Of a stretch of 64,000 bases of DNA, positions 17,677-61,637 are shown piece after piece (positions within the stretch are counted from its first letter, which is position 1; each line of letters begins with the position of its first letter). Made by a program: the position numbers and the translations under genes. This stretch comes from Phyllosticta citribraziliensis (lineage: Eukaryota). The notes beneath the pieces were generated by a model. That model was given only the letters and a program-made list of their open reading frames with translations, was not told where the DNA came from and ran no database searches. The stretch spans positions 434,001-498,000 of the forward strand of contig NW_027117341.1 of NCBI RefSeq assembly GCF_038025025.1, read 5' to 3'.

Positions 17677-19911
17677 ATGGGCGGTCCTGACCAGCCTTAT
17701 ATTTACGAGCCGCAGCGGAACTCGGTCACGTCCGACTCTTTGTACGGCTTCAATCCAAAAGCCGTCACCCAGGCGAGTAGAGCCGCTGCAAGAGCAGCTG
17801 CTTCCAAAACCCCAGCCAGCTCTGTTCGCGAAGGCCCCTTGATCGACTTTAACCGCCACCCCGACAGCTATCTCATCGGACAATATGACCACTCAGACGT
17901 GGAGCCCATGAACCCAAAAACCAAGGAAAGGGTCAATTGGGCCAAATGGATCCAATTCGCTTTCCGAGCTCTCCAATTGATCGCTGCAATCGGGTTATTG
18001 ATCTGCGTCATTTGCATCAAGGGAACCCAAGGCTTGGAGGGCTGGATAATCAGAGTCTCGGTCAGTTTGCTCAAGAACTGCAAGATACATGACTGATTTG
18101 ACCAGGTCGCGGTGGATGTTGTCTGCATCCTCTATGCTGTGTACCATCTGATGCGCCGAGTCGCTGGACGCGCGCCGGCGAGCGCTGCGAGCTACCACTT
18201 CTTTGCCCTGTTTGCTGACGTCGCCTTGATTCCTTTTTACGTCTTTACTGCCATGATGGCAAAGAGCAATCTTTCGGAGGCAGTTGGTGCCGAAGGGCGC
18301 TGGCGCACCTTTTTCAAGTCTGAATCGGCCACCAATAGCATCTTCAGCGCTACTTGGCTTACAGGAGTTACCATCGGAGGTCTGCACCTGATTTCGGTTT
18401 TTCTGGATCTTTACCTCTTAATCATCTTCCGCAAGATTTCAAACCTGCCGCCAGACATGAATCCATTGGACGACGAAATGACGTCCGAGGAACTGCGCCG
18501 AAAGCAGATGCGGTCGTCCTCAATGTCCGAGTTTATAGCCCCAGACAAGCGGTTCAGCGATCTGACTGGAAGTACTGTCAACCTGCCGAGTCCATCTCGT
18601 GCCTCCCTTCTCGAGGAACCTCCTTTACCAGACCTCCGCTCCATGCCTTTTGCACAGACACGCAAGGACGGCCAATTCTCTTACTCTCCCCACACTCCGC
18701 GCTCGGCACGCGAATCTCGGACCAGTCTACACATTTATACGCAGCCTTACTCTGCTCACTCGTCCCGTGCAGACCTCCACAGCCGGGACGGCAGTCAGAG
18801 TCCAGCCAAATCGACCGTTCCCAGCGTGTTTTCAAGGTGTGATAGTCCCACCAAGACTGTCGCATCGAGTGTGTATTCGACGTCCACTGGTGGTGGTAAG
18901 AATCACTCTGCGCCTTGCTCGCCACCTCGGTCCTCCCACCAAACCAAGCGCAAAAGCCTGCAAAATGACAATTGGTTCGTGCTCGCGGACCCAGAGGAGC
19001 CCCATGAAAGCCAGCCACTGAACCGCCGCTACTCTTTCGAGGCCGAAGACGACAAGGCCATTCCTCTGCAGCCATATAGAGACAATGCGCACGCGGGGCT
19101 CAGGTTCTCCTTCAACCTTGACAGCAGCCCCCTGACGGGACCGAACTCGTCTCCGACCAGCGCCCAAAACAATTCTTCGCCGGCACACCTGCGCCCCTCA
19201 CCTCTCCGCATGAATCCACCCTCGCCAGGCATCAAATCAGCGAGCCCACCTCCGCCAATGCCCTTTAGCCGCACCAGCACGATCAGCAGCGACCGCAGCT
19301 CCAACATTGGCCGCGCGCTCACCACGGCGTCAACCGTGACGCGCACGACGGCCGACTGGTCGACAACGGACTGGACCAAGCAGCCGGCCGGCGGCAGCAG
19401 CAACCTAAAGGCCGGCAAAAAGGGCCGCTACTACGGCGACCTGCGCAGCGCGACGGCCGCCGTCACGGGCAAAGACTCGCCGCACTACTACTCGGCCGCC
19501 AACACCAACAGCCGCAACAGCCCGGCGTCGTCGGCTCCTCACAGCGCCGGCCCCAGCCCTGGCGCCACGCCCTCACCCAGCAGCGCAAAGAAGGCCAAAG
19601 CCGCCGCGCGCTACAAGGCCGCCACGACGCTCTCTCCCGCCACGGCCAACGCCAACGCCTCTCCCTCCAAGGCCAAGGCGCAGAAGCAGCTCGGCATCAG
19701 CCCGGAGCGGTCCGGGTACGCGCGCGTCGAGGCCGGCCCCCGCGTCGTCAGTCGCTCCGGCGTCGATCTGCAGATTCCGTTTGGTGACGAAAACGGCGAT
19801 TTGGGTTTGGGCCGCAATCGCCACGTTAGCGGGAAGATGGCCGAGGAGGGACGGGTGGGCGCGGGTGCGTGGGAGGGGTTGGTGCAGCGGAAGGTCAGTG
19901 GGTTGGCGTAG
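17677..19911 (+). CDS. Fungal membrane protein: N-terminal 4-TM (MARVEL-like) domain and long Ser/Pro-rich cytoplasmic tail
   Basis: Exons 17677-18060, 18106-19911 (GTCAGT...CAG intron). Four hydrophobic segments start at 'FRALQLIAAIGLLICVICI', followed by 'FRKISNLPPDMNPL' and a disordered tail ending 'GKMAEEGR'. Confidence 0.75.
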
Positions 19912-20731
19912 TAAGCGTGGACTGAGGCTTGCTTGCCTGGTGTGCGGAATTTTGGCTTCTTGTTGAATGTGCTTTGCGGTCTTGTTGGATTGCGGAATGC
20001 CTTTGGTGTGTGTGTGTACGCGCGCGAGCTCAAAAGCTTTGACGTGGTGGACGGGCGGTGGGCGGTCGTGGTGGGGCGATGGTGTTGACGATGTTGACGA
20101 TTCCTTTGGACACGGGTTACGGGATTCGACGAGACATGGAAACGACGTACGGATTTTGTCCTGGCGTTCTTGCTTTTTCTTTCGTTTTTGTTTTCGCTAT
20201 TGGAACTGCTGGCTCTTCAGCAAGGATGAAGGGTGATGGCGTGGCAGTAAAGTATATTATAGTATAGTAGTATAGCTCAGTTCAGCTGAGCTTTGTTGAG
20301 TAGGTAGCGGAGAAAGAGGATGAGGATGAAAGGGGGGAGAGGGTGAGGGGGGACTAGGAAAGGCTGAATGAATAACGGACTATTCTTAATCTTGGATTCG
20401 GTTTTCCGGATGAAGTGAAGCAGGATCCGAAAGTGTGAAGCTTCCACACTTGGGGATTGAAGTGCTCTCCATCATTCGCAAGGTGGGAATTAAGAACGTC
20501 GTTGCTGCACAACAGTGAAGTGTAAATTGCATCCTCAACGCAGAGTCGCCGAGTTTTGAGACATATGGGCGGCTTCCCGTGAGGAAAGGAAAGACAAGAC
20601 AGTGTCTCAGGGCCTCCGAGTCCCAATCGCAACAGCAAAGTCAGTTTGACCAGGACTTCGTCTCCTCAGGAACTTGCGTCAACTGACTGTCTGGCAGACT
20701 GTAGTGGGTTTTGCGGGGTGGAGTGTGGTGG

Positions 20732-23113
20732 TTTTATACCTCAGAAGCTCTTCGCCGGACAACTCATCGGCACATGGAAATCTACGCGGCGATGCTCGTG
20801 CTGTCAAATGACCGCCTTGCGCGCATGTCAATCAGCAGCAGAGATAGCAGCAACAGGTAGGCTGGCTCATGAAAGCATCAGCCCCGCTTCAGGTGTGCTT
20901 GTGATGAGCAGTAGACGTATAAAAGCCTTGCGGACAAGAGAGACAGTGGTGTTTGACTGCAGACAACCTCTTGCGAGTTCAAGAGGGCGACGCATCTAAC
21001 GATGACTGCGGTCTTCTTTGGCCTGCGAGTGTTCGTGTGCACTTTCGGTGGTTGGGAGTTGGAGTCAGAGCTTGGAGAGACGGTGGAAATTTCGATGGTC
21101 AAAGACGGGACGGTACTTCATCATTATGGCGAAATGTTGATGGCCCTCAGCACGCTGATGTCTTTTGAGACACTGCCTTTCAGATAGTGACAAGACTCTG
21201 TCAATCCAGAGCAAGCAGTACAAATCCAAGAAATCGAGATCAACGACACAACGACTCTGCAGAGTGCACCCGTCCAACTGAGGCTTTTTTACCCGGCAGG
21301 CCTGTGCAAAGGTTGTTAACAAGTAAATTCAAGCGGAGCCCGGCGTGGTTTTATACCTGCCACGCCGCCCCGTGAGTCAGACCAGTCAGCACAAGAAGCA
21401 CATGCACAATAAGGGCGTCGTGGGCATAAAAGCAGCTCAGTTCCCTCTCTTCTGCGGCGCATCTCACGAACGAGATAGATGATTCATTAAAAGTCACTGT
21501 CAAAGAGGACTACACTGTTCCGCGCTTGATACAACAATCTCTATCACTTTTTGTTCTCTTTTATTGGTGTAGGGCTCTGGCTGCGCGTCAATGGCTAGTG
21601 ATGCTGATTGACATGATGTAATAGCATCAACCTCCATTATCATCATCCCACCATAGCCTTCACGACCCTAGAGTCCAATGGGGCATAGAAAGCTAAAGCA
21701 CAGAAAAACAGAACAGAACAGAACAGACAAAGTAGAGCTAGGCAAAGTAACTCCGCCAAACAAGTCAGGTTGTGTTCCAGGATCTTTACCGCGGCAAAGT
21801 CACACCGGCCGCGAACTTCTTGTTCAAGATTGTGCGGAGGTGGATGTGTGTTGAGAGAATGTGGCGAGGTTGTGCGCTTTTATACTTGCGCCGTCTTGGC
21901 AGGGAGGTAGTCACGCGCGTGGAGGCTTCGAGCGCTGACGCGGAGTGCCGACGCGGAGAGACCGAAGGTGTGGGTATAAAAGCCGGACTTCCTTCGCTCT
22001 AGGTTCTTTCTTCAGTCAACAGATCCGCCGGCGGCGTTTGGATGTCAAGTTCTTACTGGAACGCTGAACTGTTTTTGGTCGGCCTGCTTCTCCTCCTCAC
22101 TTCCCAGGAAATTCCACATATTTATTCTGACTGCGTGATAGATGCTAAAAGTTAAAGAAGCCATTCTCCATCACGCAGCACTGACGGCACTCTTTACTAC
22201 TCCCTCATCATAGTGACTGCCGCGGTAGAGGTCTATATGGTAGAGAAAAGAAGGCAAAGCAGCGCAGCGCAGCCAAACAAGTGGTATTTTTGAAAGCGTT
22301 CCGCCAGCAGAGTACCAGGTAATCGAAATTTCTCTCTTTCTACATGGTGGAAAGCTGGATGTCTGTTAAGAGAATGCGGGCAGAGGTCGTGGCCTTTTAT
22401 ACTGCCGCACTCTGGAAGTTGACTGGGAAAGCGGAGTGGATGGGGCACGTGGACCCTTCAAGACTCCGCGGGAACGCCGGGCGAGGATACGGGTGTAAAG
22501 GCTGGAATTCCTTCGCACTGCATTCTTTCTGCAGAACAGTTTCGCCTTTCCCGAGTACCAAATATGACAACCGTGGCTTCAATGGTACTGCTCTTGCCCT
22601 GGTTGCGGCTGCTCTCTATTTCCTTCTTCACTTCCCCGGAGAAATTTATGTTCTGGCTACGCGACAGACACTGAAGGCTGGCAACGCCATTCTCCATCAC
22701 GCAGCGCCGACGCCATCCTTCACCACTTCCTCATCACAGTAACTGCACCACACCGCAGCGACTCAAGTCTGTAGGGCGAGCAACGCAAGAGAGAGCAAGA
22801 TGAAGCGGAGTAGACGGACAAGCAAACAAGTCGAAGATCTTCTTTCATGTGTGGGAGCTCCTTGAGTTTTTTGTGCTGACAAAAGACACTCAAAGCTCGC
22901 CTGGCGAGGAAGATGCTCCAGCAGATTGAATAGCGAGATATATACCCATCGGTGCCGCTGCTGCAGCCGGCGCGTCGCGATCAGCTGCAAAACACATGAC
23001 AGAATAAGAGAGCTGCCGGGCAGGTGGATAGCACATTAACCCGGGCTCGTGATACCTGCCCGCCCACCTGGCTACCTTAGCTGAAGAGAGTGAGTGAGCG
23101 AGTGGATATATAA
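20732..23113. promoter_or_regulatory. Five periodically spaced divergent TATA-box pairs
   Basis: Minus-strand TATA elements at 20732, 21349, 21878, 22395, 22938. Plus-strand elements at 20918 (TATAAAA), 21425 (CATAAAA), 21975 (TATAAAA), 22494 (degenerate TGTAAAG), 23107 (TATATAA). Promoter activity is inferred. Confidence 0.55.
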
Positions 23114-23350
23114 CCCACCCTCCCTCCCTCTCCTTCGCAATCTGCATAGTGCCCAGTTTCCTCACGCACGACAGGAAATCTCCTTTTACGGCCAAAATGA
23201 CTGGGTTACAGCAGAAGCAACGATCATGGTACTGTTTTTGTCGTCACCTCTTTGTTTTTCACTGCCTAGTCTGTTTAGTGAAAGTTTCTAGGTAAATTGC
23301 ATTTCATCATCATCAACCAAAACATTTCTTTAGCAAGACGTCACATTACT
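21300..23350. repeat. Diverged tandem repeat of about 515-550 bp (2 clear copies, 2 more degenerate; possibly extends to about 20730)
   Basis: Collinear shared blocks: GCCATTCTCCATCACGCAGC at 22160 and 22686; CAAACAAGT at 21757/22274/22823; TGGATGTnTGTTnAGAGAATG at 21841/22356; TCCTTCGC at 21990/22509/23131; TCTGRCTRCGYG at 21576/22126/22652; GTGGTTTTATACCT at about 20728/21345. Confidence 0.8.
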
Positions 23351-24073
23351 ATCCCCCACCATTCCCACCTGATGCTGAAGTTGAAGTAGAAATCAGAAGG
23401 AGAGGAGGAGGCAGACGCAACAGTTTTTTTTCTGGAATAAAGTAAAGCGCACCAAAAACCGTTCCACTCACCACCGCACTCACATAGTCGTCACATAGCC
23501 ATGAGCCCCTCACGTGCCCCCCCTACCTCATCTGCTTAAGCACCCACGCGCTCTGCCCACCTGCCAGCCTCCCCGCTTACCTGCCAGCGCACCAGCCACC
23601 TTGAACTAGAATCATGCACGTACACGCGCACGTGCACAGCACAGCACATACACCACCACCCCAGACAAACTAGCACCCTGGCCCCCTATAAAACCCCAGA
23701 AGCGCGCCGCCCCAAACTGCAACCGCAACCACAACTGCAACCTCAGTCCCTGACAGCTGGATCGGGGATCTGACAGGAAGCTAAGCTCTCTCCACCCTCC
23801 TTTCACTGCCTGTTCTGGGTCGCAGAGGGAGCACTGACTGTGTGGTGGGGTTTTGTGCGCGGTTATAAAGTGAGGGATGGGGAAGGTGAGGGAAGGTGAG
23901 GGAAGAAGGGACAGGCAGATAGCTATACATGAGATGGGTTGATGATGGTAGTCGCTGTTTCGATGTGGTGGCGGCGCACCACGACGTGTGGGTGGGAAAG
24001 TGGGAAGTCAGGAAGTCTGAGGCGTGATGCGTGTATGAAATGATGGACACACCCTTCACGATATTACCATGCA

Positions 24074-24395: not shown

Positions 24396-25337
24396 AACGA
24401 CAAACAGAAGCATCGCATGGACCGAGATCAAAAAAGCAGCGAAGAGAAGAGAGGAGCAGCAGTTGTTGATTGTACACAACACACAACACACGCACCGCTA
24501 GGGCGACATGCTTCCATACTATTCAAAGCATCCAAGCAGAAGAGAGGAAGAGGATATGTGGTGGAGGAGGAGGAGTCTGTTGACGAAGAGAACAAAGTGT
24601 GAACCAAAAAAAAAAGAAGAAGCGGAGAAGGAAGAGAGTAGCACCCATCCATCATCCAGCGGCGGTGGTAACCAGAGAACCATTCAGATCCAATCGTACA
24701 CAGCGACAACGACGGCAACAACACCAACGAGAGCAGCAGTAGCAGCAGCAACGACAACAGACGCAAGAGGTGTTTGTTGTAATGGTGATGGTATGGTCGA
24801 GGGAGGGAGAGGAAAGATTGAGAAAAGGGGGGAGTCGGTCAGCGACAACAACAGTGACAAAATGAGTCAGACAGAGAAGGAAAAAACGACGCATGACGTG
24901 ACGAACCTTGCCGCAAGACGGCAAAAAGGCAGCAGCAGCCAAGAAGTGAATCAAAAGGTGAACAGAAAAAAAAGAGACGCCGTAAAACGTACAACTGCCA
25001 GGCCCAGCCACCATCGCCTTCTCCGGGCCAGGCTACTTATTTCACAAACTCTTCCCCCGCAACATACGAACCGACTGACCGCGCCGGTGCTGAAGAGGAG
25101 ACACAAAAAGGGGGGCAATGACGACAATGATGTGGAAGAGTGGAATGAAGGAAGTGTGAACAGAACAAAAAAAAACGCGTGGCGTAATGACGACAACAAG
25201 CCTCGTGGAAGGAACCAAAACAACGACTAAACCAATCGCTTAGCAATCACACATCAATACAAGACGCAAAAGGTCGAGCCGAATCAAATCGAAGCGCAGC
25301 GAGCGCAACCCCGTCATGTCGCGTAACATGGCCGTCA

Positions 25338-56795: not shown

Positions 56796-57039
56796 GGTAG
56801 TTGACTGTGGGTTTTGTTGTTGTGTGATGGTGGAGACGAACACTGGTGGTGGTGGGTAAGAAACGGTGTGATGGGGCTGTGCTGGAAGGACTTCGCAGTG
56901 TGCGGACAGACAGAACAAGGAGACAAACAGAGAACAGTCTGAAAGTTCCGATACCCCGTCGTGGTCGCAGGACACGCAGCAGTCCGCAGTGTTCCTGCTC
57001 CGGAGATGCTTTGGTTGTCGAGAAGAGAAAAGGAGGAAG

Positions 57040-58188
57040 TTTATATACTCTCCACTGGTGGTCTTCACGAGGAAAGATTGAAGAGGGGGAGGCATGTGTA
57101 ATATCACATGGCGCGAAACACGCACAAATGCGGGATGTGCGTTGTCAGGAGGTGTGTGCGGAGTCAGGGGGCTCTCGGGCATGTGTTGCGCGCATGCCAT
57201 TCGCATGTGCGAGAAAGCCGGTAGCGTATAAATAGACAAACCTCGTCCGCCAGCAGAGGAGAAACGTATCACTGAGTTCATTCCCAAGTTTCTAAGAGCA
57301 GGAATACCAAAATGCATCCGTTTTTCTACACTTGGCTGTCCATCCGCTGAGATCTGCCATTAAAACGACGTTTCCAAAACACGTATATCTCCAGCATCCG
57401 AGTCTTTTGCAGGCTATCATCGCCATACCACAACACTGACGCATCAGCGCCCATACCCTCTTGCAAATTTGGCCAGATACTCGGCCGCGGAGGCGCGCGA
57501 AACAAAAAGTGTATTGTCTTGCCAATAGTCTCGCTCCATACGTCTGTCCAAGACTGATGCTGGCGAAGTGAGGAGCATGGGCGGGGCAGAGAGGTGGGTT
57601 TTATACTCGACGAGCTGGCAGCCAGCACGCTCGTGGGTGTGTCCGGGTGGGTGCCTGGAAGACGTCACCAGGCACATGCCTTGCGCTCGTTTGCGGCTCG
57701 TGAGAGCTACTCCGACGGTCATCCAAGTATAAATGCACGAGGGAAGGCCGCTGCAGAACTCAGCGACAATGGTTGTCTACTCCGCGAACGACGTGGTCGG
57801 ATGCGGATCGAAGTACGGACTCGTTTCTGCCTCTGCTGGAGCTCCTTGACACCTGCGACATTTTTCTCTGCGTCTCGCAAATTTCCCTCGATAGAGATTG
57901 CTTTGGGGAGCATCGTGTAGAGATGACGTAGCATACATACCATGGTGCGCAAGAATTAGGCGCTACACCATCACCGCGCGATGGAGAGACCCCAGAAAGG
58001 CGAGTATATCCCAAAAGCTGGGCGCGGCCAAGTATCGCTAAGCGGATTGAGGTAAGGCAGCGAGGGAGACAATAGTGCAGAGGAATTGCCAAGTGAGCAG
58101 CCAAGTCAATTTTCTTCTGACACTCTGGACTGGGTCGTGGCGGGCGGATAGTTCGGGGAGCAGAGCGCGAAGGGGACGGGCTTTTATA
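57040..58188. promoter_or_regulatory. Second cluster of alternating divergent TATA boxes
   Basis: Minus: TTTATATA 57040, TTTTATA 57599, TTTTATA 58182. Plus: TATAAATA 57227, TATAAAT 57728. No convincing CDS between them. Confidence 0.45.
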
Positions 58189-59025
58189 GGTATTCGACGG
58201 CGCCGCGCACGCACTGGCCCTGTGATCTTATGACTGCTACTCACGTGTGAAGGAACTCACTCAAAACACAGGGAGGGGGAAGTGTGCGCAAGAGTGCATT
58301 TTGGGATGCTGAAGAGCGGCCGGCGACATCTCACAATTCTGCCTCTCGTCAAGATGCAAATCAAGATGCTCATTCATCACTGCTATCGCCGTCAAGTCTG
58401 AGTACATTCGTAAAGAAACCACTTCCTCCATGTTAGACAGAGAAGCAACCAGACACAGACTCTATCTATTTATGCTGACTCGCTATGCAAGCAAGCAAGC
58501 CATCTATCAATCCATTCATTCACATTCCCAGATCCCCAACGCCTGACAGTAAGGAATTGCAAAACCCAGAACGCCACATGCCGCACAAAATACCACTCCG
58601 AACCATGACCTGTAAGAATATCATCGGCTTTCCCGCCGTTCAAGTGTCGGCGCTCACACAATATCGCCGTCGCTTCCAATACAAACGCCGTTGAAGCAAA
58701 AGATCAGGTTGTGCAGGGCACCACCGCTTGCTGGAAACAAGATGGAAGCAGAAACAGACAAAGAGGGGGAAGTTTGAAAAGAAGGGACTGTGGTTGAGCG
58801 AGCCGGCACTCGCTGTGGTGGTGATTATGGGTGCTCGCTGTGTTGGGAAGGCAAAAAATGGGTAAGATGAGAAATGTGGAAGGGAGAAATGTTGGAGAGA
58901 ATGAAGTGCATGGTGGTGATGTTGACCATTGATCGAAGAGGAAGAAGGCCAGACCACAACACCCTCTGTCGTTGTGCCCGTCGAACAGAAACTGGACATC
59001 CATCTGGCGGATGTCAACGAACCAC

Positions 59026-60144: not shown

Positions 60145-61637
60145 GGGAGGGGAGTGGGATTTGCTGCGGGACTCGCTTGGTGGTTGACCATGGTTTGGAG
60201 TGCGCTCACTGTTTCTTGTCAGCAGAATCACATGGAAGCTCTTGTTGTATTCACTCACTGAGTGCTGATGCCTTGTGGCATTTGAAAGATGTGCTGATTT
60301 GAAGGAGTGGTAGGCGGCATCTGAGGATGCAAGGACGAAACCGAAGTGGGCTTGGGGGGTAAGGAGGCTGGAAGATGATGGTTGGTAATGTGCTGGCTGT
60401 ATATTGATTAGTGGGATTCCGTGACCACGTAACGGGAGCTTACTTGGCTCTGATGCTCTGTGGCATCTGGAAGTCCGGCTGGTTCGAAGACTGAGTGGGA
60501 GGCATGTCAACTCGAGGGGTTGTTGGAACTCTAGGAGTCCAGGCAAACGAGTTGAATGAAGCAGACATCCTGGGAGTCAATCAGTCACTCAAGAGTCCTG
60601 GTCTTGCGGATTGTGAAGAACAAGAATCAGAGTCAAGAAGGGGGGCTGTTGTCGGATGTTGTCGTAAGTCAATGTCGTTGAGAGGATCTGAGCTAAGGCC
60701 AGAGAGATTCGAAGATTTGAATTGGCTCTTATGGTCGTGCGGTAAGAATTGATGCCACCAAACGATGTTGTAGAATGGAGGTGGGGCCGGCGAAGGGAGG
60801 GGCAAGGGTTTCTTTTATCAGCTCAAGGACGGGCTGGGACAACTCTTCGCCGTCCAGGCAATCAGTCACCAGGCCAAGCCTTTGGCCATGTGAGTGTGCT
60901 ATGGCCGCAGAGAAGTCAGGGGGTCAGGGGTGTCTGCCTGCGCGCAATAGGCTGCGGCTTGTGCCTGAAGCGGGTGACCAATGAGAGGACTGATATCGTG
61001 CTTGCGTACCGCCATGGTGGGAGCAAAGCATGCGCTGCAATCGCATTAGCTTGTGATAGAAACGTACATGACTATCGAATTGCAAGGCATCGCCAGGGTA
61101 TGAAATATTCGTAAAAGTGATGGAGGAGACGTCTGAGAGAAAAGAGAAAGACATTGACTGTAGTTTTGGACTGAAGGATTCTGAGAATTGGCCGTCTCCG
61201 GTGCCCTTTGGACAAAACCAAAGCTTATCGTTATGTTGAGCAAATAATGGATAGCAACATTATGCAGTGATGATGGAACACAAGGAAGCTTGAAACCAAT
61301 GTGCAGCTTGACAAGGAGAGAGGAAATACATGAAATTTTGAGTGGGACAGGTTGATTCAAACTCCCACGGCAAGCGTTTGTGCTATGCCTCTTGCAAACT
61401 CGGTGGCCAATTCGGCTTCAACCCAGTCGTCAAACTTCTAGGACCTGGTCCTCAGGCCAGCAGAGGGTGGGCCTGTCCAGAGAAATTTGAAACGGAGTGA
61501 CAGAGAACCGTGACAGACATGCCAAAGGCGCCGGAATGACCCAACCCGTTTGACGTTCATTTTCTCCACTGACGAAGACAATTTTGACCATTGAATGAAA
61601 TCTCCAACCAAACTCATAGACCAAAGGCCGGTCCCAA

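Follow-up and report, generated by a model that had tools for sequence, protein, structure and literature searches.

Arrays of TATA-driven non-coding mini-genes in a Phyllosticta genome: candidates for an undescribed kind of small-RNA gene

The window, a stretch of 64,000 nucleotides (contig C4:434001-498000 of a 31.35-Mb, 22-contig Phyllosticta genome), raises the question of why a region toward which two genes converge with their 3′ ends, an upstream gene on the plus strand and a RhoGAP gene on the minus strand, carries closely spaced TATA words facing in both directions. Six of the 11 TATAAAA words of the window lie within 2.6 kb (20730-23350; binomial P 1.8e-6), so that the scarcity of such words elsewhere in the window, claimed by an earlier sequence-only reading, was borne out, and the ten TATA words listed in it were all located at their positions. 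That reading described a local array of four to five homologous units, between whose facing TATA boxes double-stranded RNA (dsRNA) could arise. The region 20330..23990 is here described as an array of TATA-driven non-coding mini-genes, which is one of many in the genome and not a local tandem repeat. The mini-genes most likely represent an undescribed kind of small-RNA gene.

A search of the genome for back-to-back TATA words gave 20 sites versus 1 in the reversed control. The first sample of 15 stretches, consisting of this locus and 14 fetched regions, contained 49 divergent cores of 39–189 bp and 39 convergent intervals of 356–520 bp. Further regions, with 20 more intervals (380–546 bp), were added by a second search, for CACATGC together with TATA (60 sites versus 1 in the control). 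This gave a total of 59 convergent intervals of 356–546 bp in 23 regions on 10 contigs, as counted inside the fetched stretches and not genome-wide. Neither a core nor an interval was present in ten control stretches of 10 kb picked regardless of motifs. The word CACATGC was contained in 22 of the 49 cores (1.6 expected), CTTGTGA in 14 (1.1 expected), and CTCGTGA in 9 (0.7 expected), all of which we take to be E-box and N-box words of basic helix-loop-helix (bHLH) factors. The presence of CACATGC in 14 of 21 held-out cores is circular and was not used as evidence.

Arms, each starting from one TATA, are mostly arranged back to back on common cores having CACATG and CAC(A/G)AG boxes, with the partner located about 455 bp away. 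When they were aligned on TATA, a common order appeared, comprising TATA, a pyrimidine-rich stretch at +10 to +50 with an initiator-like word, 1–3 tracts that open with ACU and continue free of A, and a central palindrome at about +190 to +260. The location of the stretch and the initiator-like word agrees with Aspergillus nidulans, for which the accessible part of PMC4046813 places TATA 30–45 nt before tight start sites. Since the set of 175 arms was chosen for ACT, the ACT frequencies are quoted from unselected sets. Among the discovery arms, ACT opened the longest A-free run in 58 of 78, compared with 12% in shuffles; it did so in 29 of 40 held-out arms (128/1200 when shuffled) and at 77 of 105 unpaired array TATAs. 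The first tract peaked at +80 to +99, near +90, and the next followed about 38 nt later at about +130; mostly one or two tracts were carried per arm. Consecutive ACT tracts were 26–49 nt apart in 62 of 70 cases, for which the null gave a mean of 30 and a maximum of 43. TATA followed by an ACU/A-free tract gave 172 matches genome-wide versus 18, with some TATAs counted repeatedly, and a single arm can therefore be regarded as the gene. The functional unit thus appears to be the single TATA-driven arm, for which convergence is common and not obligatory, since 48 of the 175 arms have no visible facing partner. The earlier dsRNA proposal is also our preferred reading, to which a two-sided central motif of Dicer-like geometry now adds sequence support; it is corrected as to the single arm as unit and as to the array being a local repeat.

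The central zone contained 149 TGATG(A/G) words on both strands versus 20 in an equal length of flank, and same-strand TGAYG words recurred at 23, 26, and 29 nt. Pairs of TGAYG 20–26 nt apart were observed in 29 of 116 cases against 13.6 expected (0 of 3000 draws), with a similar trend in three subsets (6/26, P 0.08; 9/30; 14/60). An unseeded profile placed opposite-strand words half a period away, and a model constructed from 128 units was a degenerate 20-bp palindrome, RYG AYG NTG NN CAN CRT CRY, which tends to occur as doublets spaced usually by 23, 26, or 29 nt. Held-out units (n = 20) contained 47 motif copies versus 9.6 in trinucleotide-preserving shuffles. Doublets were found in 15 of these 20 units, for which 40 trinucleotide shuffles gave a mean of 0.0 and a maximum of 1, and in 58 of the 128 training units. 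Array loci totaling 140 kb contained 50 doublets, compared with 2 in the 100 kb of control sequence and 18 in the 898 kb from other fungi. The halves of a motif copy showed no pairing in the form of covariation (0.453 versus 0.478), and the two copies of a doublet showed none either (8.48 versus 8.89, below chance), indicating that the symmetry belongs to the double strand and not to a hairpin. The spacings of 23, 26, and 29 and the main half-site offsets of 8, 11, 14, and 17 are all 2 mod 3. This strict class suggests a fixed ruler of 20, 23, or 26 nt, within which the motif slips by 3 nt. By arithmetic, a 2-nt 3′ overhang on duplexes of such a length sets both 5′ ends on the U-rich register, an agreement of one in three; blunt ends would fall on the purine register, and ends with a 1-nt overhang would start at G.

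Such arrays share a layout and not a sequence. Homology of four to five units had been claimed for the locus; one duplication aligned, with 63% identity over 516 columns (E 2e-34; 21729-22220 versus 22247-22746) at an offset of 518 bp. Among 30 pairwise comparisons of intervals, two were strong (z 37 and 20) because this single duplication spans one core and both half-intervals; two were weak (z 4.1 and 3.3), and 26 were at or near chance. A profile built on three units matched no additional unit within the window. The 20-mer reported as identical at 22160 and 22686 was recovered, with no other exact occurrence in the genome; near matches comprised one site with 2 mismatches and three with 3. 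The interval center is the best-kept part of the duplication (80% versus 45–78%), while the plus TATA decayed. The TATA pairs are real, as had been proposed, but the words are not always retained amid drift. Comparison of 35 array spans gave 26 alignments, of which 22 were within the same array, indicating that new units come from local duplication and diverge afterwards. Most units cannot be aligned to each other, yet they keep the common layout per TATA.

The features of the locus are listed below (tract positions such as +98 are counted from TATA).

Ends at 19911, plus: upstream open reading frame (ORF)
20330..23990, unstranded: whole array of TATA-driven non-coding mini-genes
20456..20475, unstranded: one lone copy of the palindromic 20-bp central motif, located inside a local hairpin (minus-strand z −3.0)
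20581..20641, minus: leftmost minus arm, with ACU + A-free tracts starting at 20641 and 20603 (+98, +136)
20731..20925, unstranded: divergent core 1; minus TATA 20731-20739, CACATG 20771, CTTGTGA 20898, plus TATA 20917-20925
21005..21056, plus: two ACU + A-free tracts, starts 21005 and 21041 (+88, +124)
21105..21153, unstranded: central motif doublet, spacing 29
21206..21219, minus: ACU + A-free tract (+137)
21348..21432, unstranded: divergent core 2; minus TATA 21348-21356, GCACAAG 21389, CACATG 21399, degenerate plus TATA 21424-21432
21514..21562, plus: two ACU + A-free tracts, starts 21514 and 21546 (+90, +122)
21598..21646, unstranded: central motif doublet, spacing 29
21695..21800, minus: three ACU + A-free tracts, starts 21800, 21765, and 21733 (+85, +120, +152)
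21729..22777, plus: the only tandem duplication (copies 21729-22245 and 22247-22777), which takes in one core with both half-intervals
21877..21982, unstranded: divergent core 3; minus TATA 21877-21885, plus TATA 21974-21982, without CACATG
22068..22098, plus: ACU + 31-nt A-free tract (+94)
22130..22179, minus: 13-bp stem with 24-nt loop; the copy at 22656-22705 keeps 13/13 pairs
22155..22200, unstranded: central motif doublet, spacing 26, overlapping the identical 20-mer at 22160-22179
22242..22313, minus: two ACU + A-free tracts, starts 22313 and 22282 (+89, +120)
22394..22501, unstranded: divergent core 4, which duplicates core 3; minus TATA 22394-22402, with the plus TATA at 22493-22501 decayed
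22587..22639, plus: two ACU + A-free tracts, starts 22587 and 22630 (+94, +137)
22681..22726, unstranded: central motif doublet, spacing 26, overlapping the identical 20-mer at 22686-22705
22802..22831, minus: ACU + A-free tracts, starts 22831 and 22811 (+114, +134)
22937..23114, unstranded: divergent core 5; minus TATA 22937-22945, CACATG 22993, CTCGTGA 23046, plus TATA 23106-23114
23231..23245, plus: ACU + A-free tract (+125)
23294..23362, unstranded: rightmost plus arm, with two copies of the motif at a distance of 49 nt
23686..23987, plus: further plus arm with TATA at 23686, ACU tracts at 23805 and 23837, and a motif doublet starting at 23939
Beyond about 25300, minus: RhoGAP gene, its end near 25300

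The minus TATAs follow each other at 617, 529, 517, and 543 bp, and the TATA-to-TATA intervals are 440, 462, 429, and, for the fourth, about 453 bp. The degenerate plus words are CATAAAA at 21425 and TGTAAAG at 22494. A central doublet is present in all four convergent intervals, a match that is in-sample because the training set of the motif model includes this locus. A 17-nt inverted match (16/17) between 20824-20840 in core 1 and the motif copy at 21599-21615 has a BLAST E of 1.7 and is likely chance.

The architecture and grammar of these mini-genes are properties read from the DNA, from which we infer transcription, co-regulation, duplex formation, dicing, and targets as follows. One bHLH-type factor would activate all arrays together, and RNA polymerase II (Pol II) transcripts from two facing arms would overlap across the shared center, or an RNA-dependent RNA polymerase would copy the unpaired ones. 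Dicer would then cut the center duplex into about two small interfering RNA (siRNA) duplexes of 23 or 26 nt, both strands of which would start with 5′-U and carry a UG-N-UG-N seed, and Argonaute would take them as guides. The ACU/A-free tracts probably act in processing or routing. New units would come from local tandem duplication, after which the layout is kept while the sequence drifts. The spacing and offsets of the doublets fit Dicer duplexes with 2-nt overhangs and a 5′ U on both strands, and the genome carries two Dicers and four Argonautes. We give about an even chance to this account of Pol II mini-genes whose overlapped centers are diced into siRNAs. More speculatively, such seeds, in which U faces purines at first codon positions and G faces pyrimidines at third ones, might pair with many coding sequences by wobble, U and G being the bases capable of it. 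A doubtful extension is that the arrays form a programmed library of several hundred siRNA duplexes, expressed from facing mini-promoters as one bHLH regulon, whose codon-register U-G-N strands silence foreign coding RNAs by wobble. If that were true, the targets would be those of the host plant, competing microbes, or viruses. The arrays bear on two disputed questions, namely whether fungi possess genes dedicated to small RNAs and kept by selection, and whether the small RNAs of fungi have effects in other kingdoms. Some 200 or more mini-genes with a readable grammar predict the starts, lengths, and strands of the small RNAs and the factor that switches them on; if the RNA interference (RNAi) reading fails, they would still be a fungal element overlooked by standard annotation.

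Several observations weigh against dicing of overlapped centers. The arms without a visible facing partner are one of them. The motif copies have no phase relation to TATA or ACU sites (Rayleigh statistics ≤ 3.2), so that no setter of the dicing register is visible. Their spacing is centered on 26, which is long for fungal siRNAs, and motif position 1 is weakly U (0.27–0.33). Matches of the motif halves to coding sequence were about double those of shuffles and fell mainly in a single frame (0.95 versus 0.42 per 100 kb), although the enrichment was nearly equal on the antisense strand (0.84 versus 0.95), which makes the match a pattern and not proof of targeting. The one 20-mer tested had no convincing genomic target. 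In the fourth interval of the locus, the plus TATA has decayed while the minus-strand hairpin is kept, as would be expected if the product there came from one strand. Nothing about the Dicer and Argonaute genes is unusual for an ascomycete. As separate observations, two of the Argonaute genes (C1:2297058 and C1:2313699) lie about 16 kb apart, and their Piwi segments are about 43–45% identical, which indicates that the pair is not a recent duplicate. One Dicer gene (C5:872831) lies about 25 kb from the array on the same contig, which may be coincidence. The 20-mer site with 2 mismatches was read and judged a probable chance match; in the same fetched locus (L004:1500-1539), an 80% match over 40 nt to window 22159-22197, probably also due to chance, directly precedes an ATG, and the region is lineage-specific.

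The main rival is a DNA element, which we consider unlikely overall: the central doublet, with alternating half-sites about 13 bp apart, would be bound cooperatively by a protein, either dimeric or of the zinc-finger type, whose role would be to terminate or insulate the two transcripts or to organize chromatin, making the RNAs by-products or a means of transcription interference. Orientation independence of the motif even in unpaired arms (15 sense-only, 13 antisense-only) argues for it, as do the lack of pairing within and between copies and the lack of phase with promoter elements described above. The ATGAY of the motif presumably resembles a half-site of basic leucine zipper proteins. By contrast, the 3-bp steps (23, 26, 29) are awkward for a helical-phase rule, and each ACU/A-free tract strictly follows the strand of its own TATA, which points to a role at the RNA level. 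Nor does such an element explain why some 200 sequence-different units persist. In favor of the rival, convergent transcription alters chromatin in Neurospora, according to the accessible part of PMC3764098.

Functional long non-coding RNAs or duplexes acting without RNAi, e.g., as scaffolds for proteins that read ACU/U-rich tracts and YCAY/UGAUG clusters, are judged improbable. The strand-specific, regularly spaced tracts and the clusters of YCAT and TGATG in the center would suit them, whereas the two-fold symmetry with its mod-3 ruler is left unexplained. We regard it as quite improbable that each arm is the precursor of a hairpin microRNA-like RNA (milRNA), with facing promoters merely permitting dense packing. 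In its favor, both duplicates of the locus keep the 13-bp minus-strand stem; its 5′ arm is invariant, and its pairing survives four one-sided G-U changes, on the minus strand only. The longest-identity run there has P 0.013, and central stems, with G-U pairs tolerated, exceed those of shuffles by about 0.7 bp. Some Neurospora milR loci are served by Pol II, as reported in the accessible part of PMC3547838. Against these points, folding of 78 arms gave a mean z of about 0, a hairpin was not shared by five of the six other paralogous pairs, the remaining one being a recent duplicate (83%), and the doublet copies pair below chance. Tiny-peptide genes, decayed genes, or neutral tandem duplications are very improbable: local duplications do occur in many arrays, the A-free tracts are slightly more hydrophobic than shuffles (2.16 versus 1.94), and 81 of 148 lie within an ATG-started frame, but 53 of 148 arms have no upstream ATG, the frames are mixed, the first ATGs show no Kozak bias, no splice signals were found, the coding potential of the center was below shuffles (−0.8 versus 3.6 for coding sequence), and the same layout is replicated across unalignable units at held-out loci.

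Known classes of elements were also searched. Two short ORFs tested at the locus had no match in Pfam, Rfam gave nothing at gathering level at the locus and no match across 100 kb of arrays, and a transfer RNA search of the locus was likewise empty. The locus has no second copy in its own genome, and a tandem-repeat check detected no tandem array there. The earlier statement that this is not a satellite, long terminal repeat (LTR), or miniature inverted-repeat transposable element (MITE) agrees with the absence of dispersed copies and with the mostly local array alignments; neither copies of one sequence nor terminal repeats, as expected of a transposon, MITE, solo LTR, or satellite, were observed. 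A cluster of box C/D small nucleolar RNAs (snoRNAs) was rejected, with C plus D boxes in 9 of 175 arms on either strand and no Rfam match, and snoRNA guides likewise (complementarity to ribosomal DNA in 86 of 175 arms versus 82.6 shuffled). RNA polymerase III (Pol III) milRNA genes were rejected on T5+ runs in 39 and a B-box-like word in 2 of 118 arms. A small-peptide gene cluster was rejected because no ATG ORF in a common frame with Kozak context was found, and an intron branch point with a pyrimidine tract because Y preceded the first AG in only 37 of 78 and 5′ splice sites were absent. Left and right A-free tracts did not pair (mean rank 0.52), and C-free guides were rejected as a general rule. 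ACT is not a start site, with G at −1 in 47 of 181 cases versus 0.8% at tight starts of A. nidulans (PMC4046813, accessible part). No description of such arrays was found in the literature covered, with most subscription journals and all supplements outside coverage. The arrays hence appear to be an undescribed class of fungal genomic element, for which the function outlined above is putative.

The arrays resemble several known systems in part. Dicer-independent siRNA (disiRNA) loci of Neurospora crassa (Dang et al. 2013, PMC3764098, accessible part) show convergent Pol II transcription in gene-rich regions and small RNAs of both strands, which the facing promoters predicted from the sequence of the Phyllosticta arrays would resemble. 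Those loci differ in extending from a few hundred bp to over 10 kb, overlapping ordinary genes, and being Dicer-independent, and neither a promoter module that repeats nor a fixed length or an internal motif is described for them in the parts of that paper covered. The N. crassa loci milR-1 to -4 are likewise intergenic, lineage-specific small-RNA precursors with a TATA-like element, of which the major ones are Pol III hairpins with a T run at the end (accessible parts of PMC3547838 and of the re-analysis, PMC9757828). The Phyllosticta arms, unlike them, have no general hairpin, few T runs or B-box-like words as counted above, and a two-sided payload; a stem-loop was not found family-wide, and the 13-bp stem is conserved at one locus. 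Plant TAS/PHAS genes, especially TAS3, are dedicated Pol II non-coding genes with a central pair of related siRNAs and flanking processing signals; they are few, and a microRNA (miRNA) trigger is needed to set the phase. The Phyllosticta arrays differ in having hundreds of units with facing promoters, and no phase relation to ACU or TATA that might reflect such a trigger was found; their strong 23/26/29-nt register is one of motifs, not of reads. The 21U Piwi-interacting RNA (piRNA) mini-genes of Caenorhabditis elegans are very many tiny, clustered, sequence-unrelated Pol II genes with common upstream motifs, each of which gives one single-stranded RNA from its start site, with Piwi and a dedicated promoter complex. 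They have neither a convergent partner nor a central dyad. The Phyllosticta mini-genes are also many, tiny, clustered, and sequence-unrelated, and differ in possessing both. By analogy, the arrays would work most like a TAS3-type phased-siRNA gene built in the style of nematode piRNA mini-genes. Interface-induced trans-species miRNA genes of Cuscuta also form a large set with a common promoter element in a plant-associated organism, and differ in encoding hairpin miRNAs from a promoter like that of U6 small nuclear RNA (10.1101/2022.07.06.498962, accessible part). In Phyllosticta, TATA and bHLH-type boxes and a predicted double-stranded payload are found instead, and export to a host would be conjectural.

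Regarding conservation, the protein of the gene before the array is 97% identical to that of Phyllosticta citrichinensis, 91% to P. citriasiana, and 82% to P. capitalensis. In 80 metagenome loci of fungi with orthologues of this gene, upstream synteny was kept. No such array was found downstream of the orthologue in the 31 of these checked for TATA words, and all 80 showed no unit homology and doublets at background only (18 in 898 kb). As these fungi are distant (27–59% protein identity), they are uninformative on other Phyllosticta species.

Some minor observations were made on the distribution of arrays. Contig C6 carries 8 of the 20 strict divergent TATA pairs at 0.79–1.96 Mb. On contig C2, two arrays separated by about 140 kb share a duplicated two-unit block in inverted orientation (L172:4157-5098 and L173:6294-7164), with 58% identity over 966 columns. 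A back-to-back TATA-like pair is also found in an AT-rich, apparently repeat-induced point-mutated, many-copy family (L088-L102); 67 matches, mostly to one AT-rich repeat, were set aside. The word TCAGGGG, which we take to contain the stress response element word AGGGG, recurs by eye, uncounted, just before or inside the central zones of several arms (e.g., L173:4657-4700, L187, L133). In the window itself, a motif doublet at 61215 lies outside any recognized array and may be chance, and a smaller array of the same kind is located at 56830-58190, with TATAs at 57048 (minus), 57226 (plus), 57606 (minus), 57727 (plus), and 58189 (minus), intervals of 381 and 463 bp, CACATG boxes, and ACU tracts.

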